Shown piece after piece: positions 5,477-32,377 of a DNA stretch of 32,377 bases. The DNA is from an uncultured Methanosarcinales archaeon (GTDB lineage: Archaea; Nanobdellota; Nanobdellia; Woesearchaeales; GW2011-AR9), in assembly GCA_964502785.1 (NCBI GenBank), contig CAZCXW010000009.1, positions 1 to 32,377 on the forward strand, given 5' to 3'. The translations under genes and the position numbers were made by a program. The first letter of the stretch is position 1. Each line of letters opens with the position of its first letter. The notes under the pieces are model-generated. The model had not been told where the DNA came from and made no database searches. It saw nothing but the letters and a program-made list of their open reading frames with translations.

Positions 5477-5922
5477 TGTATCCTCTCATACCTTCCCACC
5501 AATTCCGCTTTAGCGAGTATGTGCCCTTGCATCGCTTTCTCCACTTCTACTTTAGTGGCTCCTTCTTTTAGATTTAACATAACATCTAATGCATATAATT
5601 TGAAGAAATACCTATGCTCTGTATCTGGCGGACATGGGCCTTTATACTTGAAATTTCCTCCCGTTCCTTTCCCATGAATTCCTTCAGGTTCTTTTCCTTC
5701 AGGAATTTCTTTTGTCTCCGGTGGAATATTAAAAACAATCCAATGATCCCATATCTTTCCTGCCGGTTTTACCGCATCCGGATCATCCATAATCAACACT
5801 ACACTTTTTGCTTCTTTTGGCACATCTGCTATTGTTAACGGCGGATTGCTATTTTCTCCATCACAGGTATATTTTGAATCGATTTTTTGATTCTGCTGAA
5901 ACGTCGAACTTGTTAGTTCCAT
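5473..5922 (-). CDS. PEBP/YbhB-YbcL family (Raf kinase inhibitor-like) protein
   Basis: YTCDGENSNPPL, LIMDDPDA, WDHWIVFNIP and GPCPPDTEHRYFFKLYALD. Start set at ATG 5922 (MELTSS...), which is preceded by GAGGTGA 6-7 nt upstream. The upstream 46 codons of the track ORF overlap a repeat element. The stop overlaps the pcm stop (convergent). Confidence 0.85.
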   Translation of the reverse strand: MELTSSTFQQNQKIDSKYTCDGENSNPPLTIADVPKEAKSVVLIMDDPDAVKPAGKIWDHWIVFNIPPETKEIPEGKEPEGIHGKGTGGNFKYKGPCPPDTEHRYFFKLYALDVMLNLKEGATKVEVEKAMQGHILAKAELVGRYERIH

Positions 5923-5974
5923 GCCTTTCACCTCATTATTTTGTTCAACTTTAGTACAGCTTATTAAAATCCTC

Positions 5975-6194
5975 GGAATTTTCCACCAGTCTATGACTGG
6001 TGGCTTCAACGTGGAAAATTCTGGGAGCCAAAAAGCTCTGGCTTTTGGATCCAAAAACAATGTTTTTGTGAGTCAGAAAACCGCCCCGAGCGAAGCGAGC
6101 ATGCAAAGAAATCCGCTGATTTCTTGCACAAGAAATGCGCGACATTTCTTTGTGCCATCCGGTCTCTGACCGGTGGTGGGCGGTTTTCTTTGAC
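5975..6194 (-). repeat. Mosaic intergenic repeat, copy C (long form)
   Basis: Read on the minus strand it starts GTCAAAGAAAACCGCCCAC (6194-6176). It contains the CCGGTC-aga-GACCGG hairpin and ends with the hairpin CCACCAGT(5983-5990)-ctatg-ACTGGTGG(5996-6003). The termini are shared with copies at 12240, 21622, 22167 and 31095. Confidence 0.8.
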
Positions 6195-6337
6195 AAATCA
6201 CAATAACAAGCATTATTAATGCAGGTTTCATTTGATATTATCCAGTGATGAACATATTTAAAGATTCTTATTTTTCAGGTTAATCTTTTTAAAGAAAAGA
6301 AACAATTTCAGGAAAATAACTTTTGGAGGAAGATAAC

Positions 6338-7126
6338 ATGGCAGAACTGCAGTTTGAAGGATATTCTCCCTTCGACAGAGGAAGAATTTATACAAAAGAT
6401 GGTGAATCATTCAGTAAAATCCCTCTTCGAGAAATTCTTATGGTTGAAACTTTTACGGAACCTACGAAAGACGGCGTAATTGATTATCTGGTTAGTGAAG
6501 CATCTAAAACATCAGTTTTATCTTTGCCTTCTAGTATGGAGCAGGATGTAAAGACGTTAAGAGATCTCATTCGTGTACTGCCAACTCAAATCCTGACTCA
6601 TCTTAAAACAAGAGATTCTAATTGTTTGACTTTTGTCGGACAAAATACTCCTGCGAGAAAGATTGAACAAGGAGAAAACGCTAGACGCTATCTGCATATT
6701 CAATATGGTGCCATTCCCCTTGACTTCATTAGCGCGCAGCCAGCAGCATCCGTTGATGCAGATTGGTACGAAGCAATACTCCCTCGATTAAGTCCTTCAC
6801 CAGTAGGTGTTACCATGACCATGCAGTGGGGTATCACAGAACACCCTCCTCAGCAGGAGGAAACTCAGCTTCAAGTCAACATTCTCCAATTTGCTAAAGT
6901 AACCGAAACAGTAAGTATTGCCTATGCTGGAGTACGTGACCTATTCCCAGACTTTTCTTCAGTAAAAGACGCTACGGAAGATCATCTGAAAAGTGCTTCA
7001 TTGCCAGCCGTGAAAGCATTGTATCAAAGGGTTGCTCAAGCAATAGCTCAAGAAAAAGCTCGTGAAAAAGAAAGTCGAGAAATAAGAAGAATCCTTCTTG
7101 ATCAAGATCCAACGCACCGCCGATGA
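6338..7126 (+). CDS. Hypothetical protein, paralog 1 of a tandem pair (unknown family)
   Basis: Long ORF. ATG 6338 is preceded by GGAGG (6325-6329) inside TTGGAGGAAGATAA, the same RBS context as the S-layer-like gene; the track start at 6323 is a TTG inside that RBS. Shares blocks with the ORF at 7486-8319 (TFTEPTKDGVIDYLVSEAS, NTPAR...GE.ARY...YG.(I/V)PL, DWYEAIL, ASLPAVKAL). Confidence 0.7.
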   Translation: MAELQFEGYSPFDRGRIYTKDGESFSKIPLREILMVETFTEPTKDGVIDYLVSEASKTSVLSLPSSMEQDVKTLRDLIRVLPTQILTHLKTRDSNCLTFVGQNTPARKIEQGENARRYLHIQYGAIPLDFISAQPAASVDADWYEAILPRLSPSPVGVTMTMQWGITEHPPQQEETQLQVNILQFAKVTETVSIAYAGVRDLFPDFSSVKDATEDHLKSASLPAVKALYQRVAQAIAQEKAREKESREIRRILLDQDPTHRR

Positions 7127-7348
7127 GATTTAATATTTTTGTTTCTTCTCTCATTTTTGAATAAAGAGAATTTTGCAAAATTGATTTCCTGCTCTAAATT
7201 TGTAGAATTTTACGCATAAATTGCAAAGTTATCTGTCAGAACACAAAAGGGAAAATGATCCCTTTTTGTGCAAGAATTTTCTGCTTCAAAGAAGAGAAGT
7301 TCACCACCAATCAAAGAAAATGGTAGAAAATTCTGTGCATTTTGAGTT

Positions 7349-7384
7349 GTCAAAAAACAGGGTTTTTTACTCCCAGAATTTTCC
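7349..7384 (+). repeat. Partial copy (G) of mosaic intergenic repeat modules
   Basis: GTCAAAAAACAGGG...CTCCCAGAATTTTCC. The CTCCCAGAATTTTCC module is also present (reverse complement) in copy C at about 6010-6024. AAAGAGAATTTTGCAAAA at about 7163-7182 recurs as AAAGAGAACTTTGCAAAA at about 21598-21615. Confidence 0.6.
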
Positions 7385-7485
7385 GATATGTAAACTTAAT
7401 AAAAAATTCTGAGGATTTCAAAATTCTCTAAATAATAACATTTCTCTAAAGAAGATTTATAATTATCAAAAACGTCCCTCCTAAA

Positions 7486-8319
7486 ATGACTGGTGATGCA
7501 CGTCAATTATTCTTAGGATACCAGGCTATTGAAGAGGGAAAAGTACACTTGGGTATGGATATAATAGGGGGAATGATTACCCAAAAAATACTTTTTCCTT
7601 ACACCTTCACAGAGTCGACAGAAGAAGGTGTTATAAAGTATCTCAGTGAAGAAGCCTCTGGGGCATTGGCCAATCTCGCCTTGAATTTGCCCGAGACCTT
7701 GCGTCCCCAAAGAGAAAAAAGTGAATCCATTGAAAGTCGGATTCGCGCCCTGCCTTTTCAAATGCTGACCAAAATCGCGTTGCGGGATAATGGTTATGCG
7801 ACATTCATAAAACACAATACTCCCGCCAGAGTTCTGCCGACAGGAGAAACCCCGGCTCGGTATGTGGAAGTTTCCTACGGCTTGGTGCCGTTAGCTTTAG
7901 TTGAAGCTTCTCGGGAAATGGGGGTTGACATCAATTTTGAATGGTACGGACAAATCCTTCGCCAGTATAAAAGCGACTTCATTGGACCAAAATTAACTCT
8001 CTGCTGGAAATTAAATGCTCTGGGAAATCTCCCGCCTATTAATGAACTTATTTTTAATGCCTATAACGAAGGATATAACACTTTGTTAAATGTAGCCTCT
8101 GTCGTTTATCAAGGCTTAACGAGCTGCTGGCCAAATCCCGCCTTCAGCGATATTTCTCACGAAAAAATAAAAGAAGCTGCCTCTCCCGCGGTTGATGCCC
8201 TGCAACGATTAATTGATAGTCAGAAATTAAAAAAAGGATCTTCGGTGAAGAAAGTGCGAATTCATACAGCATCGAAAAAGGCTGGAAAAAACGATGACAA
8301 GAAAGCAAAAGTAAATTAA
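7486..8319 (+). CDS. Hypothetical protein, paralog 2 of the tandem pair; lysine-rich C-terminal tail
   Basis: 277-aa ORF with collinear similarity to 6338-7126 (TFTESTEEGVIKYLSEEAS, NTPARVLPTGETPARYVEVSYGLVPL, EWYGQIL, ASPAVDAL). Tail is KKGSSVKKVRIHTASKKAGKNDDKKAKVN. Confidence 0.7.
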   Translation: MTGDARQLFLGYQAIEEGKVHLGMDIIGGMITQKILFPYTFTESTEEGVIKYLSEEASGALANLALNLPETLRPQREKSESIESRIRALPFQMLTKIALRDNGYATFIKHNTPARVLPTGETPARYVEVSYGLVPLALVEASREMGVDINFEWYGQILRQYKSDFIGPKLTLCWKLNALGNLPPINELIFNAYNEGYNTLLNVASVVYQGLTSCWPNPAFSDISHEKIKEAASPAVDALQRLIDSQKLKKGSSVKKVRIHTASKKAGKNDDKKAKVN

Positions 8320-8336
8320 TAAAACCAGCTCGCAGC

Positions 8337-8615
8337 TTACCCCAATGCTAAATCCATTTTTGCTACTTCTGCTGACTGCACTTCCTTAATTTTCTGCATC
8401 TCTGCGGCGATGGCCTCAAAATCACGATTCTCTATCGTATACATAGCCATAATCAGAACTGCTTTCAGGCCAAAAGCGATGGGCTCTTCCTTAGCCTGCG
8501 TATCGCCTAATGCTCCTTCAACCTTTGCAATTTCCTGCGCCCTCCTCTTGATAGCCTCTAAATTAGCGTGCGGAGATTCCGGCATTAGTTTAAATGTAAT
8601 CACTGCTCTTGCCAT
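8337..8615 (-). CDS. Elongation factor 1-beta (aEF-1beta)
   Basis: 92 aa. TFKLMPESPHANLEAIK...EEPIAFGLKAVL matches the aEF-1beta pattern (KVMPESP...EEPIAFGL). Confidence 0.9.
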   Translation of the reverse strand: MARAVITFKLMPESPHANLEAIKRRAQEIAKVEGALGDTQAKEEPIAFGLKAVLIMAMYTIENRDFEAIAAEMQKIKEVQSAEVAKMDLALG

Positions 8616-8626
8616 GTTTCAACACC

Positions 8627-8797
8627 TCAATTTGGCCCAGTAAAGTTGCATTCCGGGCAGGAATATTTAATTGCATTTACCCGCGCATACGAACTGCGGA
8701 CAATTTCAAACTTGCCGCACTGCGGGCACAGAAACGACGCTGCGCCATGGTCATTCTCAATTCTTTTTTTTGTGGAAATACATATTTTTGCATCCAT
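8627..8797 (-). CDS. Small Zn-ribbon protein (COG2888-like, translation-associated); not in the ORF track
   Basis: Hand translation from ATG 8797: MDAKICISTKKRIENDHGAASFLCPQCGKFEIVRSSYARVNAIKYSCPECNFTGPN, with stop TGA at 8629-8627. It ends 11 nt upstream of the aEF-1beta start. A Zn-ribbon gene next to aEF-1beta is, as I recall, a conserved archaeal neighbourhood. TATA-like tttataaat lies about 26-30 nt upstream. Confidence 0.75.
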   Translation of the reverse strand: MDAKICISTKKRIENDHGAASFLCPQCGKFEIVRSSYARVNAIKYSCPECNFTGPN

Positions 8798-8976
8798 AAA
8801 AGCCACAGAACGAGATTTATTTATAAATGTTTTTCAGGCAAATGGGGGAGTGTTGACTTGGAGTTAAACAAACCAATAGTCTTAGCAATAATCTACAAGC
8901 CAGAAATTTTAGACATCTTCGGTGTGGTTATGGAAAAACATGAAGATAATATAGAAAAAAAGATCATGACTTGTTA

Positions 8977-10077
8977 CTAATTTATTTTTTCTTCCACACT
9001 AATTACATTATTTTCCATTTTAAATCCCACCGACAGGAATTTCTCTACGACATAAATATTTGTAAGAGTATGATCATTAACTTTGTTCCCTTGAATGGAA
9101 GAACCAGGCAGCAATCCCATGTAAAGAATTAATTGATCCATCAAATGCGCATCCACCGCCGCTTCAGCCTCGATTTCTTTTTCCAGTTCCTGCGCCGCTT
9201 CTCTCCCAATTTCTTCAGAACTCTTCCCTTTTTCAATGAGCGCGTCTCCTCCCAACAAAACAGGATTGTCATAATCCACGCGTCTTTCATTGCTGAATAC
9301 TCCCCATAACAGAATCTCTCCGCCGATGCTTCGGGCTTTTGTATATTCTACTCTTATATTTAGGGGGGCTTTATAATCTTTCAAGACATTTTCCGCTGCC
9401 TTTTTAATCCTCTCTCCTACTTCCTTTTCTTGCAACTCCAAAGAAACATTAACAATCCCTTTTATCTGCTCTAATTTTCCTTGCTTGCACAATGAAATCT
9501 TTACCGTTTTATACTTCATTTCTTCCAGCAAAGCAGGTACTGACGCAAATTCATCCACTTTAAAGCGCGGTGTAATTTCCACCACCGCTTCTCCCCCTCC
9601 TTGCGGATAATATCCACGTTTTAATATCTTCAGTTCTATTTTCTCTACGAATCGCAGCAGCTGAGGAAAAAGAATATTTTGAATATAATCAACAGAAGCC
9701 TGCCATTTTCCGCAAGTCCCTCCTTTAAGCTTAAATGTCACTTTCCCTGGCGCAAAGAGCGCTGGCAGCGTCAGAGATTGTAAAAGCAAAGCAATACTCC
9801 CCGCCGTCCCGATATCAAACTCAAAAACTCCTTTTTGGATTTTTCCCGGCCTAAAATATAATTCTGTCGAACCAATCTCTACTTTATTCGTTACGGCATT
9901 GCCTAACTGCTGCAAAGCGTGGATTGCCGTCAGATGCTGCGCTTTTAATCCTGGCTCGTCTCTCCCAGCGCGGATATTTGTTACTTTAAATTCTTGTCCC
10001 GTTAAGGTCGCAAGAGCCAGCGCCGTTCGCACCAACGCGCCGCCACCTTCTCCATAGTTGCCGTCTAATTCAATCAT
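8977..10077 (-). CDS. rtcA: RNA 3'-terminal phosphate cyclase
   Basis: GGGALVRTALALATLTGQEFKVTNIRAGRDEPGLKAQHLTAI plus the His-containing AVDAHLMDQLILYM (adenylylation site region). Confidence 0.9.
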   Translation of the reverse strand: MIELDGNYGEGGGALVRTALALATLTGQEFKVTNIRAGRDEPGLKAQHLTAIHALQQLGNAVTNKVEIGSTELYFRPGKIQKGVFEFDIGTAGSIALLLQSLTLPALFAPGKVTFKLKGGTCGKWQASVDYIQNILFPQLLRFVEKIELKILKRGYYPQGGGEAVVEITPRFKVDEFASVPALLEEMKYKTVKISLCKQGKLEQIKGIVNVSLELQEKEVGERIKKAAENVLKDYKAPLNIRVEYTKARSIGGEILLWGVFSNERRVDYDNPVLLGGDALIEKGKSSEEIGREAAQELEKEIEAEAAVDAHLMDQLILYMGLLPGSSIQGNKVNDHTLTNIYVVEKFLSVGFKMENNVISVEEKIN

Positions 10078-10649
10078 TGTTCTTCAAAAAGATGCCCCAT
10101 CTTTTCTTTTTTTGTAAGCAGATATCGCCTGTTTTCCTCTGTTGGTCTGGTCGTCAGAGGAATTCTCGTGACTAAAATTCCTTTTTCATTTAAGACTTCT
10201 TGTTTTTTTGGATTATTTGTCAGAAGCCGAATCGAAGAAATTTTTAAATCATGGAGAATTTCCGCCGCCACGGCAAACTCTCTTTCATCATCATTAAACC
10301 CCAGCGCGTTATTGGCTTCTACTGTATCTAAACCTTTATCCTGCAGGGCATACGCTTTTATTTTATTGAATAATCCTATGCCTCTTCCTTCCTGCCGCAA
10401 ATAGACGAGAATGCCTCCTTCCTCACCGATGATCTTTAACGCTTTTATCAGTTGGGCTTGACAGTCGCAGCGCAGCGAATGAAAAACTTCTCCCGTCAAG
10501 CATTCGGAATGAACGCGCACTACGCAATTATTTTTTGCTTCTTTAATTAACACCGCATGCTCTTTCTGATCAGACGTTTTGTAAATATGCACTGTGAATT
10601 CCCCAAACTTTGTGGGGAGCTTGGCCGAAGCCGTTTTCATAATCATCAT
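10074..10649 (-). CDS. ribA: GTP cyclohydrolase II (bacterial RibA type)
   Basis: VRVHSECLTGEVFHSLRCDCQAQL (three Zn Cys residues), YLRQEGRGIGLFNKIKAYALQDKGLDTVEAN and LLTNNPKK. Near-collinear with E. coli RibA. Overlaps rtcA by 4 nt. Confidence 0.9.
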   Translation of the reverse strand: MMIMKTASAKLPTKFGEFTVHIYKTSDQKEHAVLIKEAKNNCVVRVHSECLTGEVFHSLRCDCQAQLIKALKIIGEEGGILVYLRQEGRGIGLFNKIKAYALQDKGLDTVEANNALGFNDDEREFAVAAEILHDLKISSIRLLTNNPKKQEVLNEKGILVTRIPLTTRPTEENRRYLLTKKEKMGHLFEEQ

Positions 10650-10774
10650 CGCTCTAAGAACGTTCTGATATAAATTAATTTAGGATTATTTTTCTAGAGA
10701 AAAGTTTATCCTTCATAAAATAAGTGACGGCAAACCGTTTCCTTTTTGAGGTCAACGCCATTCGGAGCAAAACC

Positions 10775-10785
10775 TTAATAAAATA
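10775..10785 (+). promoter_or_regulatory. TATA-like box for tRNA-Trp
   Basis: ttaataaaata lies 22-32 nt upstream of the predicted tRNA 5' end (10807). Confidence 0.45.
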
Positions 10786-10806
10786 ACTATTTTTCTAGTG
10801 CTTTGT

Positions 10807-10958
10807 GGGGCTGTAGTATAACCTGGTAGAATAAGGGCCTCCAGTACTGGAGGATTGAGCGTCAAGCGATGACAATACCTTCCCCTGTGGTTAGCCTTTG
10901 ATCTGGGGATTAGCAAGCACGCGCTTGTTATTCAGAAATTCAAATCCCAGCAGCCCCA
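10807..10958 (+). tRNA. tRNA-Trp(CCA) with two apparent introns (48 nt at 37/38; 31 nt in the T-loop at 53/54)
   Basis: Hand fold. Acceptor GGGGCTG (10807-13) pairs with CAGCCCC (10951-57), discriminator A. D arm GTAT/GAAT is weak. Anticodon stem AGGGC (10834-38) pairs with GCCTT (10894-98), with loop CT-CCA-G then intron 10845-10892 then A. T stem CTGGG (10903-07) pairs with CCCAG (10946-50) and T loop TTCAAAT (10939-45) is preceded by a 31-nt insert (10908-10938). Spliced length is 73 nt. Confidence 0.7.
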
Positions 10959-11018
10959 CTTTTATTTAGTTATCAGTGTCCCTTCTATTTTATATATTTC
11001 TTTAATATTACTCGCATT

Positions 11019-12185
11019 ATGTCTCAAAAAAGAGGTCGTGATTGGTCGCTTCTTACTGCCGCTGCCCTCCTCATTGGCACCGTGATTGGCGCGGGAATTC
11101 TGGGCATCCCTTACGTTGTCGCCAAAGCCGGCTTTTGGTACGGGGTTTTGTTGGTGCTGGGACTGGGCGTCGTTTATGTATTCTTGCATTTATTCCTTGG
11201 TGAAATTATTTTGAGAACAAAAGAACAGTACCAACTTACCGGATATGCGGGAAAATACCTTGGCCCATTAGGAAAAAAAGTGATGACTTTTTCTTTGCTC
11301 ATCAGCCTTTATGGGGCGCTCATTGCCTACATCATTGGCAGCGGAGAAACTCTCTATTATGTTTTTAAAATAGGTTCTCCCAGCGTCTGGTCTATTCTTT
11401 TTTTCCTCATCGCTGCAGGCATCATTTACCAGGGAATTAAAGCAGCCGGAAAAACAGAAATGCTTCTTACTCTTTTTCTTATCGGCACAGTGCTGGGCAT
11501 CGGTATTTTTTCTTTTGAACGTATCCATCTTCAGGAATTCACTTTTTTTCATCCCGCTTTTTTTTTCTTTCCATACGGCGTCATCCTCTTTGCCTATCAT
11601 GGGACGGCTGCTGTTCCTGAAATGCAGGAAGCTTTAGGCAAAAAGAAAAAATACCTCAAAATGGCTGTTCTCTTAGGTTCCGGCATTCCTATTATTATCT
11701 ATTTGCTCTTTACCTTTGTTGTTGTTGGCCTGATTGGTTTAGAGAATTTTGAATTGCTGGCGCCTAACCAGCGCATCGCCACCGTTGCCCTTGGCATCTA
11801 TTCACATCCACTCTTAGGCTTGCTTGCCAACATTTTTGCGACGTTAGCGATGTTCACTTCGTATTTAACTATCAGCCTCGCTCTGCGGGGAATTTATGAA
11901 TATGATTATAATATCTCAAAAAGAGTAGCTTTTAGTTTAACCGTGCTCGTCCCTTTAATCATTGCTCTTCTTGGCCTTACCTCGTTTATTACGATATTAA
12001 TGGTCACAGGAACATTGATTGGCGGGTTGGAAGGCAGCTTGATTGTTCTCATGTATTGGAAAGCTAAAAAAAATGGTGATAGGAACCCTGAATATTCTCT
12101 AAAAGCCCACTACTTTATTGGTTCCATTCTTCTCTTTTTCTTTATCATTGGAATTATTTATCAACTCTGGCACACCTTTCAATAA
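11019..12185 (+). CDS. Amino-acid permease (aromatic/hydroxy amino acid permease-like, multi-TM)
   Basis: About 11 hydrophobic segments. N-terminal LLIGTVIGAGILGIPYVVAKAGFWYG is typical of the Trp/Tyr (HAAAP/AAAP-like) permeases. TATA-like attttatatatt lies about 25 nt upstream of the ATG. Confidence 0.75.
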   Translation: MSQKRGRDWSLLTAAALLIGTVIGAGILGIPYVVAKAGFWYGVLLVLGLGVVYVFLHLFLGEIILRTKEQYQLTGYAGKYLGPLGKKVMTFSLLISLYGALIAYIIGSGETLYYVFKIGSPSVWSILFFLIAAGIIYQGIKAAGKTEMLLTLFLIGTVLGIGIFSFERIHLQEFTFFHPAFFFFPYGVILFAYHGTAAVPEMQEALGKKKKYLKMAVLLGSGIPIIIYLLFTFVVVGLIGLENFELLAPNQRIATVALGIYSHPLLGLLANIFATLAMFTSYLTISLALRGIYEYDYNISKRVAFSLTVLVPLIIALLGLTSFITILMVTGTLIGGLEGSLIVLMYWKAKKNGDRNPEYSLKAHYFIGSILLFFFIIGIIYQLWHTFQ

Positions 12186-18876: not shown

Positions 18877-19644
18877 TTAATACAACATTATTCCATACCA
18901 GAAATACAACAATCGGTCAACAGCTTTCACAATATCTTCTCCCTGCCCGCTGATCTTAACACAAGTGTCAAAAAATTCTACTGTAGGAGCTTTATCTTGA
19001 AAGTTAAGTTCCACGACCGGCCTGCCATTTGCCGTTTCGCACGTAATAATTGTTCTATTCTCGCAGATGGGATCATCCATTGTGCAAGAACCTCGAGGAA
19101 TTCGATCCATTCCTTTCACCAGATTAAAACTTAATTCTGAAACCGCCAGCGAATAATACTTATTTGCGACATTGGGATTAATTCCTATAAAAACATCTTC
19201 TCCTTTGTTAAATGCGGGATTAAGCCTCCCCGCTAGGGGAATATTTTCCAATTCCTTCGGTCCGTAATGAAGAGGAATTTTTAATAACGTCTTCTTATCT
19301 TTCATGATTTCTGTCCACCACAAGCCGTCGGCTTTTACAACACTAAAAGCGCCATAGGTGTATCCTTCTTCATCATTTAATTTGCCTTTCAGGTTTTTAT
19401 CATGCAGCTCTTCGATATTCACCACTGTTCCTCCGGTGATTTTGTTATAAATTGCCAATCCGCCAAAAGAAAGGACAAAAATCCCGATAATCACCGCTAA
19501 AATAATGACTATATTTTTTGTTTCCGATTTTCCTGGTTCAATATTCTCTTTATCAACAGTTTCTTTATCAATAAGACTTTCATAGACAAAATCTTCCTCT
19601 TCCTTTTCCTCTTGAGAAGGTTCTTTTTGTTCCAGTTCGTCCAT
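18877..19644 (-). CDS. Hypothetical type-II membrane protein (acidic N-tail, one TM, roughly 180-aa Cys-containing ectodomain)
   Basis: MDELEQKEPSQEEKEEEDF..., TM IVIILAVIIGIFVLSFGGLAIY, and an ectodomain with CTMDDPIC, C-E-T and a further Cys. The stop lies 2 nt from the Nudix start, so it is probably in the same operon. Confidence 0.6.
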   Translation of the reverse strand: MDELEQKEPSQEEKEEEDFVYESLIDKETVDKENIEPGKSETKNIVIILAVIIGIFVLSFGGLAIYNKITGGTVVNIEELHDKNLKGKLNDEEGYTYGAFSVVKADGLWWTEIMKDKKTLLKIPLHYGPKELENIPLAGRLNPAFNKGEDVFIGINPNVANKYYSLAVSELSFNLVKGMDRIPRGSCTMDDPICENRTIITCETANGRPVVELNFQDKAPTVEFFDTCVKISGQGEDIVKAVDRLLYFWYGIMLY

Positions 19645-24566: not shown

Positions 24567-24983
24567 TTAGAGTGGGTATTCAACTGCCAAAAATTCACTA
24601 GCTTTCATAATTGTCACTTTTGCAAATTCTTTCAGTTTCAGTAAATGCGGATCTCCACTAATCAAATATTGAACATTTCCTACTATTGCTGTTTCCAGTA
24701 TTGCATTATTATAAGGATCATCTACAATTACTTTTACTTTACCTGTAATCTCAACCATCGTTGCAATTTCCAGAATTATAGAGATAAACATTGCTTTCTG
24801 CTCTCCAGTAAAATTGAATTTTGGATAGTCCAGTACTCTTTTTAACTCTTCAATCTGATTTGGAGAACTTACTAACTCCAATTCTCCATACAAACACTTC
24901 TCAAAGATCACTCTTGGTTTTCCCAACCAGCCAAGGGCAGAAATGAGAATATTCGTATCTAAGAGGACCTTCGTCTTGCCCAT
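24567..24983 (-). CDS. vapC: PIN-domain toxin (VapC-like)
   Basis: KVLLDTNILISAL N-terminus, acidic residues at PIN positions (VDDPYNN, SGDPHL), 138 aa, and overlap with the upstream antitoxin gene. Confidence 0.8.
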   Translation of the reverse strand: MGKTKVLLDTNILISALGWLGKPRVIFEKCLYGELELVSSPNQIEELKRVLDYPKFNFTGEQKAMFISIILEIATMVEITGKVKVIVDDPYNNAILETAIVGNVQYLISGDPHLLKLKEFAKVTIMKASEFLAVEYPL

Positions 24984-25225
24984 GCGACAGCCTCATCAAC
25001 ATCTTCAGGTGCAACTCTCTGTTTCTTGAATTGCTTCTCAATTTCTTTCGATAATTTCTGAAATTCAGCTTTTACATCTGGTATTTCTACTTTCTTAAAT
25101 AATATCCCACCTTTTACAGGAAACGGAACAAATCTATCCCCTGGACTAAATCCTTCGTCTATCCTTATATCTTGAGGAACTACCAACTGTCCTTTCGGAC
25201 TCATTTTTACGAGATCGGTGTCCAT
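24959..25225 (-). CDS. vapB: AbrB/SpoVT-family antitoxin (VapB-like)
   Basis: MSPKGQLVVPQDIRIDEGFSPGDRF swapped-hairpin motif; 88 aa; GGAGG about 9 nt upstream of the ATG; overlaps the PIN gene by 25 nt. Confidence 0.8.
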   Translation of the reverse strand: MDTDLVKMSPKGQLVVPQDIRIDEGFSPGDRFVPFPVKGGILFKKVEIPDVKAEFQKLSKEIEKQFKKQRVAPEDVDEAVAWARRRSS

Positions 25226-25250
25226 TTTATGCTACCTCCCATTGATGGTA

Positions 25251-25270
25251 AACAGTTAAACAGTTAAACT
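25251..25270. promoter_or_regulatory. Tandem octamer AAACAGTT x2.5, candidate VapB operator
   Basis: aaacagttaaacagttaaac sits between tatataaaa (25271-25279) and the SD/ATG of vapB. Confidence 0.35.
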
Positions 25271-25362
25271 ATATAAAATTTTCTCAAAATTACAGTTGCT
25301 ACCTATAAAATTGTATACTGTGGTTTATTTTAATTTACCAAAGTAATCGAAAGATTATTAAA

Positions 25363-25388
25363 GTATATCCGAGTACTTTACGGTATAC
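25363..25388. promoter_or_regulatory. Inverted repeat just upstream of the double-RHH gene
   Basis: GTATATCCG (25363-71) ... CGGTATAC (25381-88), ending 3 nt before ATG 25391. Confidence 0.35.
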
Positions 25389-25390
25389 CC

Positions 25391-25690
25391 ATGGACAAAA
25401 AGAGGCTGGATAGCGTTACAAAGATTTCTCAGGCTAATCTAGACCGCATTTCACGCTTAAAAGAATCAGGTTACGAGCCGAATGATTACGTCATTAATCT
25501 CGCATTAGACCTTCTCGAACAGGTGGGAGGGGGGGAAGGACTTGCGACGAAGCCGAATCTGACCACCAAAATTTCTTCTAAGACATTATTGCGGATTGCA
25601 AAGCTAAAACCAAGCGGTTACGAGACAAATGATTACATTATCGCCAAAGCGCTAAGTTTGCTGGAGAAGAAAAAAAGCATTAAAAAATGA
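25391..25690 (+). CDS. Tandem (fused) ribbon-helix-helix protein, putative DNA-binding regulator
   Basis: Two internal repeats, VTKISQANLDRISRLKESGYEPNDYVINLALDLLEQ and LTTKISSKTLLRIAKLKPSGYETNDYIIAKALSLLEKK. Each has the beta-strand / helix / G-x-(S/T/E) / helix layout of CopG/Arc-type RHH modules. They are joined by VGGGEGLATKPN. Confidence 0.55.
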   Translation: MDKKRLDSVTKISQANLDRISRLKESGYEPNDYVINLALDLLEQVGGGEGLATKPNLTTKISSKTLLRIAKLKPSGYETNDYIIAKALSLLEKKKSIKK

Positions 25691-28600
25691 AACAAAAAAA
25701 TAGAAAAAAGAGAAGAATGTTGAGAAAAAAGAAAGAACATTCTTTCCTTCCGCATCTTACTCCAAAGCTCTGGCTCTTTATGCTGCTCCTCGTCCTCCTC
25801 GCTCTGGGCAGTCTTTCATACTTTGTAGGTCCTCATACTATGAGTTCGATCACGGCCAGCGCTATCGGCATTTTGCCATTTGAAGAGAGCATTATGAATG
25901 AAACTGGACCTTCAGAGAGCAACAAAACGGAGAGTCAATCCGCTAATGTATCAGCGCTCTTGACTGAAAATGGCGCGCTTCCATCTGAAATTTCTGCGCC
26001 TCAGGAAAGAAATCTGCCTCAGGAAAGAAATCTCATTGTCAGTCAGATAACACCTCAGGCCGGAAATCATAATCGAGTCAGAGGGCCAGGAATGAATCGT
26101 CCTTCCGTGGTCAATAGAACAAACCTGCCCGAAGGAAGGGATCAGCACAATGGGTTTCGAAAGTATACCAAAAATAATGGCTTTGTTGTTGTGACTGAAC
26201 CAAAGGTAAGTTGTGAATGGGAGAGCCCAACCCTTGCTGTAAAGAGATGTTCTATTGTCTTTGAAGCCGAGAACACCAATGGCCAAAAGCCTGTCATTTC
26301 TGCTCCCACTTTGAATTTTAGCCACCAAAATGCTAACATCACTGACGTTACGACGTTATTCTCCAATGAATCTGTTGAGGATACTATTTGGGAGGTAATT
26401 TCCAACGTGACGGGAGATTATATTGAGGGTGAAGCAATTGATAGATTTACTAATTTTGTTCCTATTCCCGCTGCTATTGACACGGGAATTCCCTTTGCCA
26501 TTCAATACAATTTAACCATGCCCGTCTATCAAAACGATACCTTCAGCCTGCAACTAATCGGAGTCGTCAATGCTACTATTGACCCAGATATCTCTGCCTG
26601 CGCTACGCTTACAAATACAACAGATGAGTATGTGTTAACTTCAGAGGTAAGTTCCACCACAGATTGTTTTACCATTAGCAGTTCTACTGGTGTGGAGTTA
26701 GATTGTCGTGGAAATCTCGTTTATTTTGGAACTGATGGAAAAGGAAGCGCCAGGGGCGTTTTACTTAATGCTGCAAATGATACAAAAATTAAAAATTGTA
26801 TTTTTATACAGGGAGCAGGAAATAATACCAATGGCGATCGGGCAGTTTTAACAACCTCGAACAGTAGTGTAAATCTAACTATTCTTAATAATACTATAAT
26901 TCTCAACGGGACCAACGCAAAAGGAATAAGATTCTCAAATGTCCTAAATAGTGAAATAACATTAAACCGGATTAATGCTTCCATTGGTAATGCCCCGGCG
27001 GGAATAGAACTCATTTCTTCTGATAATAATACAATTATCCAAAATAATACTATAACTATCACTAGTAATGCTACACAGGGGATTTTTATCAATGGCGGGT
27101 CAGGAAATAATACGATTCGTTACAATTTTATTAACATAACTGTCTATAATTATGGATCCCCTATTTTCTTTCTAGGAACAAAGTTCAACTATATTTACAA
27201 TAATACTTTACACTATCAATGTACGACATGTAAAACTGATCAAGGCGATCAAGATGTTATTATTTTTGGATTAGGTTTAGCTGTAAGTGATAACCAATTT
27301 GTTAACAATATTTATTCCATTATTGGAAATGGTTCTGAAATGATTTTTAGAGATCGAAGGCCGCTGGAAGCAGATACACTCATTTTTAATAACTCACAGG
27401 GAGAAATAAGATTTGCTTACAATTCATTTCTCCTCAATTTGAATATCACTACTTTTTCCCGAACATTGCAGTTAGGCACTAATTTACATATCAGCAACAA
27501 CAGCATTGCCATTAACGCTTCCGATTTTAACACTTCCAAAAGTCCTTATTCGAACAGCAGTCTTAATCTCACATTGTCAGGATTGGGCTTTAATCAGAAT
27601 GTGACAAGAATTTACTATCTCGCAAACTTCAGTAATGATGGGGATTTCATTATTGCCAACGGTATAGATTGTATTGCCGCGGGGTATTGCGGCAATTTAG
27701 CTTATGACAACACAACTAAAATTGCTACATTCAATACTTCCTACTGGGGAAGTTTTGCGGTTAACGGAACGTATATGATAGATACTTTTTTTCCTCAAGC
27801 AGCATTCCTCAATCCTGCGAATAACAGCAACTTTAGTTCTGGTAATCAATCATTCAATGTCAGCATTCTTGAAGATTGGTCTTTAGGAGTAGTTCTCTTC
27901 AGTATTTCCAATAGCACTGGAACGCCATTTAATATCACATCTTTGACCAATGTCAGCGGCAACTGGAACACGATGATTAACATGAGTTCGTTAGTGGAAG
28001 GAACAAATATTGTAACCGTCTTCGCCAATGATACGAGTAATAATCTCAATAATACTGTTACTCTTTACTTTAATGTTGACTACACACCACCTAATGCTTC
28101 GTTTGTGAATACTATTGCCAACAACACAAATTTCAGCCTCGCCACGGGCTCATTAATTCTCAATGCTTCCATCATCGATGGTTTTGCAGGTGTATTGTCA
28201 GTGAATCTGAGTTTTGAAAACAACAGCGCGCAAGGCGGCACGGCATTCAACCGCACAGCTCTTAATTTCAGCGGGATGTGGAACGTCACCTTTACCGATG
28301 TATCTAACTTAACGGATGGCCTGCACCGTGTCAAAATTATGGCCAATGACAAACTTAACAACACAAATCGCACGTCTGAATTCTGGTTTGGCGTGGATAA
28401 GACCCCTCCTAATGTCAGCAATCTCAATATGATGGGCATGCTTACCCCTTCCGCTTTAGTTAATAATTCTAATTTCAGCGAGAATGTTGTAGCGCAATAT
28501 GGAGCAATCGCTTTTAATGTCACGGTCATCGATGGTTATCGGGGAGTCTTAAATGTAAATTTCAGTTTCGACAATGCTTCCGGAAATGCCGGGGGAACAG

Positions 28601-30444
28601 CATTCAATCGCACTGCCACGAACTTCAGCGGCAATTGGAATGTTTCATTTGAAAATATTTCTTTGAATTTCACCGACGGCCTTCATAAAATAATAATCAT
28701 GGCCAACGATGGATTGAATAATACGAATCGAACTACAGAATTATGGTTTAGAATTGACAGAGAAGTTCCGAATGCCAGTTTTGTCAACACAGTGACAGCT
28801 GGCGCAAATTTCACAGAAGCGACGGGAAGAGTTGTGTTCAATGCGAGCGTCATCGATGGAAGCATTGGCGTATTGGAAGTTAACATGAGCTTCGACAATG
28901 CGAGCGGCGTGGGCGGAACTGCATTCAATCGTACTGCAGCTAATTTCAGCGGCAACTGGAATGTGAGCCTTGAGAATGTCTCTGCAAACTTAACGGATGG
29001 TCTGCATGTTGTCCGCATCATGGCAAATGATAGATTCAATCACAGCAATCGTACAACAACATTTACATTCAGGGTTGACAGAGCGCCACCAAATGTTAGT
29101 GTTGGCGTCTTTGGAATAACAAATTCGAGTTATGGCGATTCCACTAATTTCCTCACCTTTGTGAATAACAGCAACTTCACGAGCGGAGCTCGTGTCGTGT
29201 TCAATGCGACTGTTATCGATGGCGTGACGGCTATCTCAACCGTTAACCTCAGTTTCTCTAACTTAACGGGAGACGGAGGAACTGCATTCAATCGTACTGC
29301 GGCTAACTTCAGCGGCAACTGGAATGTGACATTTGAGAACATTGCCCAGAACTTTACCGACGGCAGACATAGGCTGTTTATCATGGCGAATGACTGGGTG
29401 AATCACAGTAATAGAACCACTGATTTTTGGTTTTCGGTTGATACCACTGCTCCCAATGTTACTATTCTTACTTCTAATCTTACAAGATACAGTATAAATA
29501 ACGGCAGCACCGTCAATGCTACCATTTTCGAAACAAATTATGTTGTTGCTGTTATCTATCAATTCAGCAATGGCACTAACCCATTTAATCTCACGGCCGT
29601 TAACAACAGTGGAAATTGGCATTTAACATTTAACGCTTCTATCATTACGGAAGGAACTCACAATATTACGATCTTTGCCAATGACAGCGCGGGGAACTTG
29701 AATCGTGGGCAATTGGCGACTTTTATTATCGACCGCACCGCGCCGACAATTTCCCTCAGCCGTTCTGATGCATCTACTTCTACGCAATTGATAATTAACA
29801 TCGCCACCACGTCTGATTCTTTGACGTGCATTTCCGATCGTGGAAATGTTATAGGGACAGGCGCCGCGCAAACCCTCACCGCCAGTAGTTTAAGCCCTGA
29901 CACTATCTATTCTTTCACCGTATCTTGCACGGATGATGTTTCCAATACGAATAGTGTAACCCAAGAATTCCGCACTGGAGCTGCAGGTGGCAGTGGAGCT
30001 TCGGGAGGAATTAGCGGCGGTGGCGGAGGAGGTGGTGGCGGACGAAGCGCATCTCCTGCTGCGGAAAGCGAGCCTTCGCCGCAGCCAAGCGATGCTGTCA
30101 CTGGCGCGGTAGTTTCTTCAGAGGAGGAAGCTCCGATTAGTGAACGCGGCGGAGAAGCCGCCGGTGAAACAGGCGGCAAAAGTTGGATCCGACGGCCTTT
30201 TGTCCAAGTAACTGCTAATCGTGTCAGTGCCTTTGCGAAGAACATTATTTCTCTCACCACCGAGAGAGCCAGCGCGCTGCTTAAAATGGCCATCACCAAA
30301 TCAAAATGGTTTGCGACGGTTAATTACGGCTGGATAGCTCTCGCCTTTGTTTTAATTGCGGTCGTTCCCAGAATTTGGGTTTATGTGTATAAGAAGAGCG
30401 CAAAGAAACAGAAAAAAATAAAATCTATGAAAAGAAAACTATGA
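25687..30444 (+). CDS. Giant (1585 aa) membrane-anchored surface protein: N-terminal signal-anchor, parallel beta-helix (PbH1/NosD-like) region, about 7 Ig-like modules, Gly/Ser/Pro linker, C-terminal TM
   Basis: Basic N-tail plus TM (LWLFMLLLVLLALGSL). PbH1-like repeats at about 26750-27400 (NNTIILNGTNAKGIRF, NNTIIQNNTITITSNATQGIFI, NNTIRYNFINIT). Repeated modules are bounded by (V/I)D-x-x-(P/A)PN(A/V)(S/T). GGISGGGGGGGGGRS linker. C-terminal TM WIALAFVLIAVVP followed by a K-rich tail. ATGA overlaps at both ends. Confidence 0.85.
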   Translation: MKQKNRKKRRMLRKKKEHSFLPHLTPKLWLFMLLLVLLALGSLSYFVGPHTMSSITASAIGILPFEESIMNETGPSESNKTESQSANVSALLTENGALPSEISAPQERNLPQERNLIVSQITPQAGNHNRVRGPGMNRPSVVNRTNLPEGRDQHNGFRKYTKNNGFVVVTEPKVSCEWESPTLAVKRCSIVFEAENTNGQKPVISAPTLNFSHQNANITDVTTLFSNESVEDTIWEVISNVTGDYIEGEAIDRFTNFVPIPAAIDTGIPFAIQYNLTMPVYQNDTFSLQLIGVVNATIDPDISACATLTNTTDEYVLTSEVSSTTDCFTISSSTGVELDCRGNLVYFGTDGKGSARGVLLNAANDTKIKNCIFIQGAGNNTNGDRAVLTTSNSSVNLTILNNTIILNGTNAKGIRFSNVLNSEITLNRINASIGNAPAGIELISSDNNTIIQNNTITITSNATQGIFINGGSGNNTIRYNFINITVYNYGSPIFFLGTKFNYIYNNTLHYQCTTCKTDQGDQDVIIFGLGLAVSDNQFVNNIYSIIGNGSEMIFRDRRPLEADTLIFNNSQGEIRFAYNSFLLNLNITTFSRTLQLGTNLHISNNSIAINASDFNTSKSPYSNSSLNLTLSGLGFNQNVTRIYYLANFSNDGDFIIANGIDCIAAGYCGNLAYDNTTKIATFNTSYWGSFAVNGTYMIDTFFPQAAFLNPANNSNFSSGNQSFNVSILEDWSLGVVLFSISNSTGTPFNITSLTNVSGNWNTMINMSSLVEGTNIVTVFANDTSNNLNNTVTLYFNVDYTPPNASFVNTIANNTNFSLATGSLILNASIIDGFAGVLSVNLSFENNSAQGGTAFNRTALNFSGMWNVTFTDVSNLTDGLHRVKIMANDKLNNTNRTSEFWFGVDKTPPNVSNLNMMGMLTPSALVNNSNFSENVVAQYGAIAFNVTVIDGYRGVLNVNFSFDNASGNAGGTAFNRTATNFSGNWNVSFENISLNFTDGLHKIIIMANDGLNNTNRTTELWFRIDREVPNASFVNTVTAGANFTEATGRVVFNASVIDGSIGVLEVNMSFDNASGVGGTAFNRTAANFSGNWNVSLENVSANLTDGLHVVRIMANDRFNHSNRTTTFTFRVDRAPPNVSVGVFGITNSSYGDSTNFLTFVNNSNFTSGARVVFNATVIDGVTAISTVNLSFSNLTGDGGTAFNRTAANFSGNWNVTFENIAQNFTDGRHRLFIMANDWVNHSNRTTDFWFSVDTTAPNVTILTSNLTRYSINNGSTVNATIFETNYVVAVIYQFSNGTNPFNLTAVNNSGNWHLTFNASIITEGTHNITIFANDSAGNLNRGQLATFIIDRTAPTISLSRSDASTSTQLIINIATTSDSLTCISDRGNVIGTGAAQTLTASSLSPDTIYSFTVSCTDDVSNTNSVTQEFRTGAAGGSGASGGISGGGGGGGGGRSASPAAESEPSPQPSDAVTGAVVSSEEEAPISERGGEAAGETGGKSWIRRPFVQVTANRVSAFAKNIISLTTERASALLKMAITKSKWFATVNYGWIALAFVLIAVVPRIWVYVYKKSAKKQKKIKSMKRKL
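27775..29970 (+). repeat. Intragenic tandem array of about 7 Ig-like coding modules (about 240-365 bp each)
   Basis: Module boundaries lie near 27775, 28078, 28396, 28756, 29076, 29441 and 29731. The recurring core is GGTAFNRTA-NFSGNWNV-(S/T)-EN...TDGLH...IMAND..N.(T/S)NRT..F.F.VD. Segments 28915-28966 and 29278-29329 differ at only 2 of 52 nt. Confidence 0.85.
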
Positions 30445-30818
30445 GAAAAAAACAAAAGAGGACGCTCCGGAGGATGTTCCTGCAAAAGAAGTATGTTCAT
30501 TCCTATTTAATAGTATTATTCCTTCTCTTCCTTTTCTTGCTCAGCATTGCATTTATTGTTCCTCAAGAGCTTTCCAATTCCATCACCGGAGCGGTGATAA
30601 GTATATTGCCCATTGACGAGCCTCAAAATGAAACTGCCCATTTCATTAATCCTTCTCCAGAAATAACCATTCCCGAAAATCCCGCAACTAAAGTCCAGAA
30701 TCCTTCTCCCGCAGCTTCTGTACGTAATCCATCACCAGAGCAACCGATCAATTTGGAAAAGAACTTGAAAAACATAAAACAAACCGCTGAAGAAAGAGAC
30801 TACGAAGAGTTAGACTAA
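30441..30818 (+). CDS. Small membrane-anchored Pro-rich protein; N-terminal module paralogous to that of the giant protein
   Basis: MRKKQKRTLRRMF... followed by a TM, then SNSITGAVISILPIDEPQNET (compare MSSITASAIGILPFEESIMNET in the giant protein), then NPSP repeats. ATGA overlap with the giant gene's stop. Confidence 0.6.
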   Translation: MRKKQKRTLRRMFLQKKYVHSYLIVLFLLFLFLLSIAFIVPQELSNSITGAVISILPIDEPQNETAHFINPSPEITIPENPATKVQNPSPAASVRNPSPEQPINLEKNLKNIKQTAEERDYEELD

Positions 30819-30894
30819 AGAAGGAATTTTTAACTGAGCCTCTTCCATCTATTCCACTTTTTCATCACTACCTTTTTATACTTCTTCCATAATT

Positions 30895-31056
30895 ATGATT
30901 TCGGTGATCACTATGACAATGGGTAAACGAGACGTCGAAAAAAGGTTAAAAGATCTTAAGCAGGAAGTGGCTGCTCTTGAAGCGAAATGCCAGGGCGGGG
31001 GAGGAAAAAAAGAAGATTATGAACTGCTTGCCAAATTAAAGCGGAAGCTGAATTAA
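30895..31056 (+). CDS. Possible small coiled-coil protein (45-53 aa, start uncertain); not in the ORF track
   Basis: Hand translation: (MISVIT)MTMGKRDVEKRLKDLKQEVAALEAKCQGGGGKKEDYELLAKLKRKLN, stop at 31054-31056. TATA-like cctttttatac lies at about 30871-30881. Confidence 0.3.
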   Translation: MISVITMTMGKRDVEKRLKDLKQEVAALEAKCQGGGGKKEDYELLAKLKRKLN

Positions 31057-31171: not shown

Positions 31172-31633
31172 TTATTGCACGGTAATCGTGCCTTGCACTA
31201 CTCTATCTCTGTCATCAGGGCGTTCATCGCGCGTGTCTTCCATTTCGTACTCGCTGGCGTAATAATACACGCCTGGCTGCAAAAATGTATACTGCGCTTT
31301 TGCTCCCGGTGGAAGGAATATCTCCGGACCATTTTCTTGAAACATTATTGTATGGCTGATATAGAACTGTTTTCCTTCTGCATTTTGCACACTGTCTCTG
31401 TTCACCCACATCACTGTGTCTCCGACATTAATTATCAAATCTGTAGGCATGAATTGCAGGTTTTCTACAACTACTTCACTCACCACTCCAGTTGCTTTTA
31501 CAACCAAAGCTTCCTCCTCTTCCTCTGCCACAGACAGCTTTTGTTGCGGTTGTTTTATTTGCTGTTGTTCTACGCAGCTGCTCACCAAGAGCGCGCCCAA
31601 CAGTAAAATACTTAGGACTAGTATTTTTTTCAT
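31172..31633 (-). CDS. Cupredoxin-fold lipoprotein-like protein lacking an intact type-1 Cu site
   Basis: Signal peptide with lipobox MKKILVLSILLLGALLVSSC. Plastocyanin-like VVENLQFMPTDLIINVGDTVMWVNRDS and SHTIMF. The usual C-x(n)-H-x(n)-M loop is replaced by GVYYYASEYEMEDTRDERPDD. Confidence 0.6.
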   Translation of the reverse strand: MKKILVLSILLLGALLVSSCVEQQQIKQPQQKLSVAEEEEEALVVKATGVVSEVVVENLQFMPTDLIINVGDTVMWVNRDSVQNAEGKQFYISHTIMFQENGPEIFLPPGAKAQYTFLQPGVYYYASEYEMEDTRDERPDDRDRVVQGTITVQ

Positions 31634-31662: not shown

Positions 31663-32377
31663 CTACTCAGAAGTCCTCCTTTTTAACAATAATTTCCATT
31701 CTCCTTTATAATACTTGTGGAAAGCATAGAGGGCTGCGAGGACCATCAGCAGGCTGAACCATTGGCCAACAGTAAAGGAAAAATAGGTTTTTTCATCGCG
31801 ATAGAAGTCCAGCAAAAACCTTCCCAAACCCTCTAAAAAGATAAAATTCCAAAAAACAAATCCTGATTTAAACTCTTTCTTGTAACCCAGCCAAAGCAGC
31901 CAAACAAATAACAGGAATCTTTTTCCTGCTTCGTACAACTGATACGGATGCCGGCAGAGATCGTCTCCTCCAGTATTTTTAAAATTAACGCACCACAAAC
32001 CATTCCATGGTTTTCCCCAGAGTTCTCCATTCACAAAATTAGCAATCCTTCCTAACGCCAGAGCCAAAACAGCGGGAATCGTCAGAATATCCGCCACGCG
32101 CCAAAAATCGATTTTTTTCTTTTTACAGAACCATAGTGCTCCTAAGACGCTTCCTGCAAATCCGCCATGGAAACTCATTCCCCCCTGCCAAACTTTAAAG
32201 ATATTAAGAACATTTGAGAAATAATAAAGTGGTTCATAAAATAATTCAAAGAGACGCGCTCCTATAATCAGCCCCATCATTACATAAAAGATAAGATCCC
32301 AGATATCTTCTTTGCTGAGATTAAGTTGTGAACGCTGTTTTTGCAGGAAATAAATTCCTAACAAAAAACCTAACACA
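31663..32377 (-). CDS. lgt: Prolipoprotein diacylglyceryl transferase (Lgt) homologue; the N-terminus runs off the window
   Basis: VWQGGMSFHGGFAG, LGRIANFVNGELWG and RHPYQLYEAG are collinear with the E. coli Lgt signature blocks (VWDGGMSFHGG, GRLGNFINGELWG, RHPSQLYE). Multi-TM protein. Confidence 0.9.
   Translation of the reverse strand, partial: VLGFLLGIYFLQKQRSQLNLSKEDIWDLIFYVMMGLIIGARLFELFYEPLYYFSNVLNIFKVWQGGMSFHGGFAGSVLGALWFCKKKKIDFWRVADILTIPAVLALALGRIANFVNGELWGKPWNGLWCVNFKNTGGDDLCRHPYQLYEAGKRFLLFVWLLWLGYKKEFKSGFVFWNFIFLEGLGRFLLDFYRDEKTYFSFTVGQWFSLLMVLAALYAFHKYYKGEWKLLLKRRTSE

Follow-up and report, generated by a model that had tools for sequence, protein, structure and literature searches.

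In a 32,377-nt stretch of contig CAZCXW010000009.1 (positions 1–32,377; assembly GCA_964502785.1; hereafter the window), from an uncultured archaeon deposited as Methanosarcinales and placed by GTDB in the Woesearchaeales, a 99-aa gene (A) overlaps the start of a gene for a 1585-aa giant protein (B), which in turn overlaps a 125-aa orphan gene (C). We consider it reasonably probable that A and B make up a two-gene operon under self-regulation, in which A encodes a predicted single-chain double ribbon-helix-helix (RHH) autoregulator and B a predicted giant surface protein, with C as a lineage-specific passenger. In our judgement the two-gene module is real and undescribed, and its mechanism is of an ordinary kind: no paper linking an RHH family to such proteins was found in a literature search, and the family, its operator and its strict tie to hypervariable giant surface proteins appear undescribed.

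Few candidates are obvious for the means by which small host-dependent archaea contact other cells; giant surface proteins are among these and, to our knowledge, almost nothing is known about their expression in such archaea. The locus provides a concrete point of entry into their regulation, open to in vitro tests without culture and comprising a rare RHH family, a likely operator and a strict physical coupling to the giant gene. If the plain reading, a self-repressing gene pair, is true, it would be a tidy new example of the familiar autorepressor design and would introduce no new principle. The role in host attachment or episymbiosis raised in the initial annotation is a matter of conjecture.

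Overlapping genes and conserved synteny

The three open reading frames (ORFs) lie on the forward strand at 25391–25690 (A), 25687–30444 (B) and 30441–30818 (C), and are chained, as initially annotated, by two ATGA stop/start overlaps that can be read directly from the sequence (A/B, 25687–25690; B/C, 30441–30444). B is, as had also been stated, by far the largest gene in the window, the second longest ORF having 628 aa. A Shine-Dalgarno-like sequence is absent from the ~20 nt before the start of B, which argues for coupling of A and B by reinitiation; because B and C both start inside the preceding stop codon and have no ribosome-binding site of their own, their translation would probably depend on ribosomes that finish the preceding gene. 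Oligo-T has a known role in archaeal transcription termination, and three T5 tracts on the same strand (30827–30877), at most 60 nt past the stop codon of C, form a candidate termination zone.

A search for homologs of A among 5.8 billion proteins returned five sequences, all of 98–103 aa, and three further true members, one tandem and two with a single repeat, came from an exhaustive profile search of 1.84 billion representatives; three marginal profile matches (to Cpl-7-like, ankyrin-like and leucine-rich repeats) were judged unrelated to the family. The family is rare, ~15 sequences having been found in total. Ten distinct loci were compared, namely the window, L001/L002, L007, L008, L011, L013, L014, L015, L017 and L019, where L013 and L018 are one locus on two contigs, and L001/L002, from a Woesearchaeota metagenome-assembled genome, is the only related locus with a taxon label pointing to DPANN. 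The G+C content of these loci ranges from 34% to 59%. In all ten a very large ORF starts before the small gene has ended, the overlap being ATGA in seven loci and 14–26 nt long in the remainder. The giant is complete in L011 (2760 aa), L013 (2944 aa) and L014 (1271 aa); the other related giants run off their contigs. The proposal of a dedicated regulator hard-wired to a giant gene thus holds for the A/B pair. The synteny expected of the whole trio was borne out in part: the 99-aa family flanks giants in every locus, and the 125-aa gene has no ortholog.

A small regulator gene as a general feature of giant beta-helix/immunoglobulin-like (Ig-like) proteins was considered and rejected, since two more distant giants of this type, P0013 and P0014 (in L020 and L022), have, unlike B, no overlapping small regulator gene upstream; the coupling is therefore a property of the A-type RHH family. 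The giant of L021 starts too near a contig end to tell, and the same applies to P0012 and to P0008, the closest relative of B. P0009 is coupled, unlike B, to another small DNA-binding protein, of the ArsR/MarR winged helix-turn-helix (wHTH) type. In L010 an ATGA overlap joins the gene of a 90-aa protein of this type (5732–6004) to that of a 1973-aa B homolog (6001–11922) with a transmembrane segment and an SSITGAAV head; the wHTH gene has a TATA box flanked by the inverted repeat TAGAAAAC..GTTCTA, and an unrelated DNA-binding fold here occupies the same position.

Small stand-alone RHH proteins are typical of toxin-antitoxin and plasmid modules, and a PIN/AbrB toxin-antitoxin pair lies directly upstream of A on the opposite strand. 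On these grounds A might be taken for an antitoxin-like or mobile-element protein, of toxin-antitoxin, plasmid copy-control or partition type, whose adjacency to B is incidental. We find this barely credible, and the least likely of the alternatives. A has no toxin partner and, past its second unit, ends in a short Lys-rich tail only, with no toxin-neutralising C-terminal extension; a giant secreted protein lies downstream of the A-family gene in all ten loci; viral contigs and the records of phages and plasmids yielded no relatives of A; and the gene content of the window is that of an ordinary archaeal core chromosome (aIF5B, Trm1, PCMT, RtcA, geranylgeranyl reductase and ABCE1). No tRNA gene was found in the window.

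Predicted fold of protein A and the palindromic array in its promoter

Protein A is an internal duplication, residues 10–44 aligning to residues 59–93 with 63% identity (E = 1e-13). An AlphaFold2 (AF2) model computed with the family alignment (predicted local distance difference test, pLDDT, 75.6; predicted template-modelling score, pTM, 0.65) places a strand at residues 8–12 and helices at 14–23 and 31–45, then, after a linker, a strand at 57–61 and helices at 63–71 and 80–98, a twofold beta-alpha-alpha arrangement in which each unit has the topology that defines RHH proteins. From the model and the repeat alignment, RHH unit 1 comprises residues 8–45 (25412–25525, forward strand; strand VTKIS, helix, SGYEPND loop, helix) and unit 2 residues 57–98 (25559–25684, forward strand). 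The best Foldseek matches in the PDB were chains E, F and G of a relaxosome (9f12_E, probability 0.99, TM-score 0.56), DndE, a permuted single-chain Arc and AvtR; the number and size of the three 9f12 chains lead us to infer that they are the three TraY molecules of the relaxosome study (10.1101/2024.12.19.629322). In BFVD the best matches were 95–120-aa proteins of archaeal (crenarchaeal) viruses annotated as RHH/CopG (probability 1.00, TM-score 0.57–0.62). Matches to single-chain RHH dimers span 91–101 columns, i.e. the full length of A.

Profile searches for RHH_1/CopG-type similarity matched no RHH model. Pfam gave only a sub-threshold Exog_C match (20 bits) that we judged spurious, NCBIfam and PHROGs gave nothing usable, and profiles of the family and of the repeat unit produced chance matches only among PDB sequences (armadillo designs, centrin, phosphoglucomutase). 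In hhalign comparisons, A gave nothing with Arc and E = 0.015 with CopG (probability 3%). Since these sequence comparisons did not place A in a known RHH family, the double-RHH assignment depends on its predicted fold and on evidence from the promoter DNA. The initial description of A as a fused double RHH protein is supported by the AF2 fold, by the Foldseek matches to single-chain double-RHH proteins and by the operator-like array described below, and A is predicted to be a single-chain, pseudo-dimeric RHH protein of a small, previously unclassified family. A reading of the repeat as a Cpl-7-like three-helix unit was dropped, the model and all structural matches being RHH.

Repeat units of the family are 53–78% identical to unit 1 of the window protein. 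Over 25 repeat units, G22 and N26 are invariant, with the spacing G-Y-E-P-N in a loop longer than the classical motif; in the RHH family the turn has a glycine followed by Ser, Thr or Asn capping helix 2 (G-x-S/T/N). The strand residues T5, K6, I7 and S8 show little or no variation, in keeping with a recognition sequence (GTATAC) that is itself invariant. A single-repeat form of ~48 aa, which would have to dimerise, occurs in L013, L014 and L019. Alignment position 11 is Asn in tandem unit 1 and in the single-repeat forms, and Thr in most second units; because unit 1 thus resembles the single-repeat forms while most second units differ, the tandem form seems to descend from one old duplication-fusion. 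The family therefore adds a natural pair of single-repeat and tandem-fused forms to the few known single-chain RHH proteins.

Immediately upstream of A on the forward strand, a proximal TATA-like box, TTATTAAA (25355–25362), with a putative promoter function, is followed by an operator-like array of three 10-bp-phased units (25363–25388): GTATAT (25363–25368), GTACTT (25373–25378) and GTATAC (25383–25388). The array ends 2 nt before the ATG of A (25391). Further upstream, a distal TATA-like element, CTATAAAATT, followed by an exact GTATAC (25313–25318), is possibly a second promoter/operator unit (25303–25318, forward strand); a similar distal layout is present in L011. Each of the ten loci has a TATA-like box followed by two to four palindromic GTATAC-core units with an exact 10-bp period, and in most loci other than the window the box abuts the first unit. 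The last unit lies 2–3 nt before the start codon in nine loci, L001 with its ~20-nt gap being the exception, and across loci perfect outer units enclose degenerate inner ones. In 1.3 kb of upstream DNA from the ten loci we counted 21 exact GTATAC sequences, compared with 19 in 142 kb of background (0.13 per kb) and 0.9 ± 0.9 in dinucleotide shuffles of the upstream regions (maximum 5 in 1000 shuffles); pairs of sites spaced 10, 20 or 30 bp apart number 23, compared with 0.4 ± 0.7 in shuffles. No second phased GTATAC array was found elsewhere in the window.

RHH operators classically take the form of phased palindromes within the promoter of the regulator gene itself, and archaeal repressors bound downstream of the TATA box, over the start site, block polymerase recruitment. 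Because the GTATAC array lies downstream of the TATA-like box and over the expected transcription start, we infer that it is an autorepressor operator. The TKIS strands of A would pair into one sheet that reads the palindromic GTATAC core, and several copies of A would line up along one face of the DNA over the three to four 10-bp-phased units between the TATA box and the start codon. Binding there would block RNA polymerase recruitment and so repress, rather than activate, the operon of A itself. Since A and B would be translationally coupled, repressor levels would follow the output of giant protein, and the resulting negative feedback would cap expression of a very costly product.

Comparable arrangements are known from three settings. 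F-plasmid TraY and lipothrixvirus AvtR resemble the predicted A in carrying two RHH units in one ~100–130-aa chain that forms a pseudo-dimer: the TraY monomer holds the whole RHH-dimer fold and three TraY bind as a train on adjacent sites (10.1101/2024.12.19.629322), a mode like that proposed for A on its phased units, and AvtR has two RHH motifs within one chain (PMC6547453). Unlike TraY and AvtR, to neither of which it has detectable sequence similarity, A belongs to a family that also has a single-repeat form; and whereas TraY is a plasmid relaxosome accessory factor and AvtR a viral regulator, the A family is chromosomal, archaeal and tied to giant genes. The CopG–RepB system of pMV158 likewise has its small RHH gene first and is co-transcribed from a promoter that CopG represses (PMC2724298); co-transcription and an operator over the gene's own promoter are what we propose for A. 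CopG, however, is a 45-aa homodimer of a bacterial plasmid that controls a replication initiator, whereas the A system involves a 1585-aa surface protein, a promoter of the archaeal TATA type and an operator built as a 10-bp-phased GTATAC array. An archaeal precedent for a tiny RHH gene kept in synteny and co-transcription with one structural gene is cdrS–ftsZ2; there CdrS reportedly activates ftsZ2 together with further genes, and none was detected in DPANN (PMC7439475). The family, target and operator of A all differ from those of CdrS.

Alternatively, A could be a cytoplasmic helper, such as a co-translational chaperone or targeting factor for the basic N-terminus or signal anchor of the giant, with the palindromes read by another factor. 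The failure of RHH sequence models to match A would fit such a role, as would the very high conservation of the A family whichever giant follows and the fact that in several loci the conserved partner is the giant's N-terminal signal anchor. Yet the predicted fold and all the best structural matches are those of DNA-binding RHH proteins, phased palindromes of the classic RHH layout co-occur with the A family in all ten loci (weakly in L013 and L014), and the giants of L013 and L014 have a different, classical signal peptide and nevertheless the same RHH partner. We therefore regard a helper role as highly unlikely.

Several observations weigh against A as the autorepressor of an A/B operon. 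The AF2 model was built on a six-sequence alignment and its confidence is moderate, the structural matches have weak E-values (0.002–0.04), no RHH model in Pfam, NCBIfam, PDB profiles or hhalign recognises A, and its inter-helix loop, KESGYEP, is longer than that of classical RHH proteins. The window array is the weakest of its subgroup, with one perfect proximal core, one unit with a single mismatch and one degenerate unit, and the arrays of L013 and L014 are weak, with one or two good units each. Oligo-T tracts are not depleted within the operon (8 compared with 6.6 ± 2.4 expected), which makes this test of a single transcript uninformative. Finally, the data do not explain why a giant surface protein needs a repressor of its own.

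Giant protein B, its relatives and gene C

The features of B are those of a putative type-I-like surface protein: a signal anchor, a beta-helix, six Ig-like domains, a linker and a C-terminal transmembrane segment, all on the forward strand. The N-terminal signal anchor, a transmembrane segment at residues 24–49 with putative signal-peptidase cleavage, is followed by a juxtamembrane ITASAI (55–60; 25756–25866 for the two together). A right-handed parallel beta-helix core occupies residues ~300–520 (26584–27246), and six sequon-rich Ig-like repeats of ~100–120 aa each, with boundaries read from the sequence, occupy residues 701–1350 (27787–29736). Beyond them lie a seventh small beta domain (1351–1431), with weak Pur_ac_phosph_N and Big_3_3 matches, and a Gly/Ser/Pro-rich linker (1432–1500) without sequons (29737–30186 for both), and then the C-terminal transmembrane segment (1541–1569; 30307–30393) and a Lys-rich tail, as in P0010, P0013 and P0014. 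The hydrophobic segments at 24–49 and 1541–1569 agree with the two terminal membrane segments first proposed.

The designation of B as a beta-helix/Ig protein has unequal backing in its two parts. Big_13 (71.1 bits, E = 1.2e-19) and Big_3_3 (65.1 bits, E = 7.7e-18) match well above the Pfam cut-off of 27, in five stretches each. The Beta_helix match is sub-threshold, at 21.5 bits on residues 328–482 (gathering cut-off 25.9), and is lost with full-length B; the beta-helix is supported instead by homologs and by modelling, in that residues 300–590 align by BLAST to NosD/Beta_helix-bearing regions of P0011, P0012 and P0013, the AF2 model of residues 300–520 is an all-beta core (pLDDT 75–89), and all top Foldseek matches of this core are right-handed beta-helix proteins. 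B contains 108 N-x-S/T sequons, compared with 38.7 ± 5.2 in shuffles (maximum 53), and none past residue 1400; it is probably heavily N-glycosylated. An export signal, a C-terminal transmembrane segment and ectodomain sequon enrichment, the three marks of archaeal surface glycoproteins, are all present. B shares its building blocks with the giants P0008–P0014 (NosD/Beta_helix with Big_13/Big_3_3), from the signal to the C-terminal transmembrane segment and basic tail; giant surface proteins built in this way occur in archaea and in bacteria.

The RHH-coupled giants are not orthologs of one another, and are mosaics sharing shuffled modules. An N-terminal layout of a transmembrane segment followed by [IL]TGxA is found in most of the lower-GC RHH-coupled giants, in the wHTH-coupled giant and in C, and is otherwise rare among ORFs with hydrophobic N-termini in these loci. 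The giants of L013 and L014 do not have the ITGxA head; they are Ala/Leu-rich proteins with a classical signal peptide and zero N-x-S/T sequons in 2944 and 1271 residues, respectively, and, like the giant of L001, have no Pfam domain at all. Between L007 and L019, an identity of ~70–73% runs from the gene upstream across the promoter and the RHH gene into the giant, where it ends after ~55 codons; beyond that point the two are unrelated. At sequence level this is a conserved head and a variable body, with the boundary just past the signal anchor.

This sharp boundary raises the possibility that the head (operator, RHH gene, overlap and ~55 signal-anchor codons) is a portable expression and export cassette behind which ectodomains are swapped by recombination, autoregulation being a housekeeping part of it. 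Woesearchaeota-like archaea might, by extension, use a self-regulating "expression head" to recombine unrelated ectodomains behind it, varying the surface for cell-cell (host) interaction while the RHH protein fixes the expression level whatever the cargo; cassette exchange, if true, would be an archaeal mechanism of surface variation. The L007/L019 break and the mosaic make-up of the giants point this way, as does the identity of 53–78% among RHH units across a G+C range of 34–59%, while the giants vary from beta-helix/Ig proteins to Ala/Leu-rich ones without a Pfam domain; related genomes also differ in where the RHH–giant unit lies, and in which direction it points, with respect to Lgt and ABCE1. 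On the other hand, a clean breakpoint is seen in one locus pair only, the ITGxA head is absent from the giants of L013 and L014, a look at these contig-level loci identified neither silent cassettes nor a recombinase nor repeats, and long-term divergence with domain shuffling could yield the same picture. We hold the cassette to be unlikely, and give its extension to surface variation the same low weight.

The two-gene operon that we favour leaves C outside the conserved module. C has a basic N-terminus, a transmembrane segment (~22–40), an ITGAVI motif (48–53), an acidic tail and, as the NPSP repeats noted at the outset, three NPSP motifs (70–73, 87–90 and 96–99). The initial annotation had C reuse the anchor and juxtamembrane motif of B. 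The two N-termini do resemble each other, though weakly (25 bits, pairwise E = 0.002; SSITASAIGILPFEE..NET in one and NSITGAVISILPIDE..NET in the other), and specific paralogy was not upheld, the motif being common to most lower-GC giants. Because similarity at the DNA level in this region is no more than moderate and is patchy, we rejected a recent duplication of the 5′ part of B as the origin of C. C is probably co-expressed with B, because of the ATGA overlap, the lack of its own ribosome-binding site and the position of the T5 tracts after C only.

In the three-gene surface module initially proposed, A would regulate and B and C would be partners, C serving for example as a short stalk or co-anchor that pairs with B through the juxtamembrane motif in host attachment. 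C is ATGA-coupled to B, copies a giant-type N-terminus (basic stretch, transmembrane segment, ITGAVI, ILP..E..NET) and is the only one of the three genes followed by T-tracts. The search of 5.8 billion proteins, however, returned C itself as its sole match, tblastn of C against all the related loci examined gave none, the complete giants of L011, L013 and L014 are not trailed by a C-like gene, and the motif shared by B and C is not specific to them. The three-gene module did not survive these comparisons, and we consider it rather improbable. Because its N-terminus belongs to the giant-type signal-anchor class, C is best described as a short lineage-specific derivative of that class; it could be a remnant of a giant-gene head.

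Further observations concern individual giants. In four loci a second giant ORF lies directly 5′ of the RHH gene, forming tandem giants (L013, 1–8871; L014, 2–8575; L019, 3–6083; L007, 3–1727), and the upstream fragment in L007 contains an AHSLGG lipase-type serine motif. In the higher-GC genomes, the signal peptides of the L013 (10126–18960) and L014 (10126–13941) giants end in Cys (..YAQSC and ..TFASC), and these giants could be lipoproteins. In L009 (1–320), P0008 was called from an internal TTG; its frame continues 5′ through a transmembrane segment and GSGITGAAIG with no canonical start, and an ORF in another frame ends at a poly-A tract just before this head, a pattern suggestive of a frameshift or of misassembly close to the end of the contig.

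Neighbouring genes

Upstream of A on the reverse strand (24567–25225), and divergent from it, an 88-aa AbrB/SpoVT-like gene overlaps a PIN_3 gene as a type II toxin-antitoxin pair. The intergenic region that this pair shares with A contains a tandem direct repeat, AAACAGTT (25250–25278, ~2.5 copies), beside TATATAAAA; the repeat may be the operator of the AbrB/PIN_3 pair. Just 3′ of C, a 53-aa coiled-coil ORF (30895–31056, forward strand) is 65% identical to an ORF of L017 (5030–5176), and is therefore a real conserved small gene of the neighbourhood.

The prolipoprotein diacylglyceryl transferase Lgt (PF01790, E = 1e-61) is encoded on the reverse strand at 31663–32376, adjoining a cupredoxin-like protein (31172–31633, reverse strand) with a signal peptide ending in the lipobox ..LLVSSC. 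The same pair is found in L011, also on the reverse strand (Lgt, 9085–9867; cupredoxin, 8499–9011, lipobox ..FVVGC), and would place a bacterial-type lipoprotein enzyme beside its likely substrate in an archaeon. In L008, L011, L015 and L017 the gene directly upstream of the RHH gene encodes Lgt, and in L014 the Lgt gene lies ~3.6 kb 3′ of the giant gene. A DsbA/thioredoxin-like protein of the window (2830–3540, forward strand), with a twin-arginine-like STRRTFLL and a lipobox-like PFIGC in its N-terminus, is a possible Tat-exported lipoprotein. Finally, a 255-aa protein encoded at 18877–19644 on the reverse strand has an acidic 40-aa N-terminus and one transmembrane segment followed by KITGGTVV, an ITG juxtamembrane motif located outside the operon.

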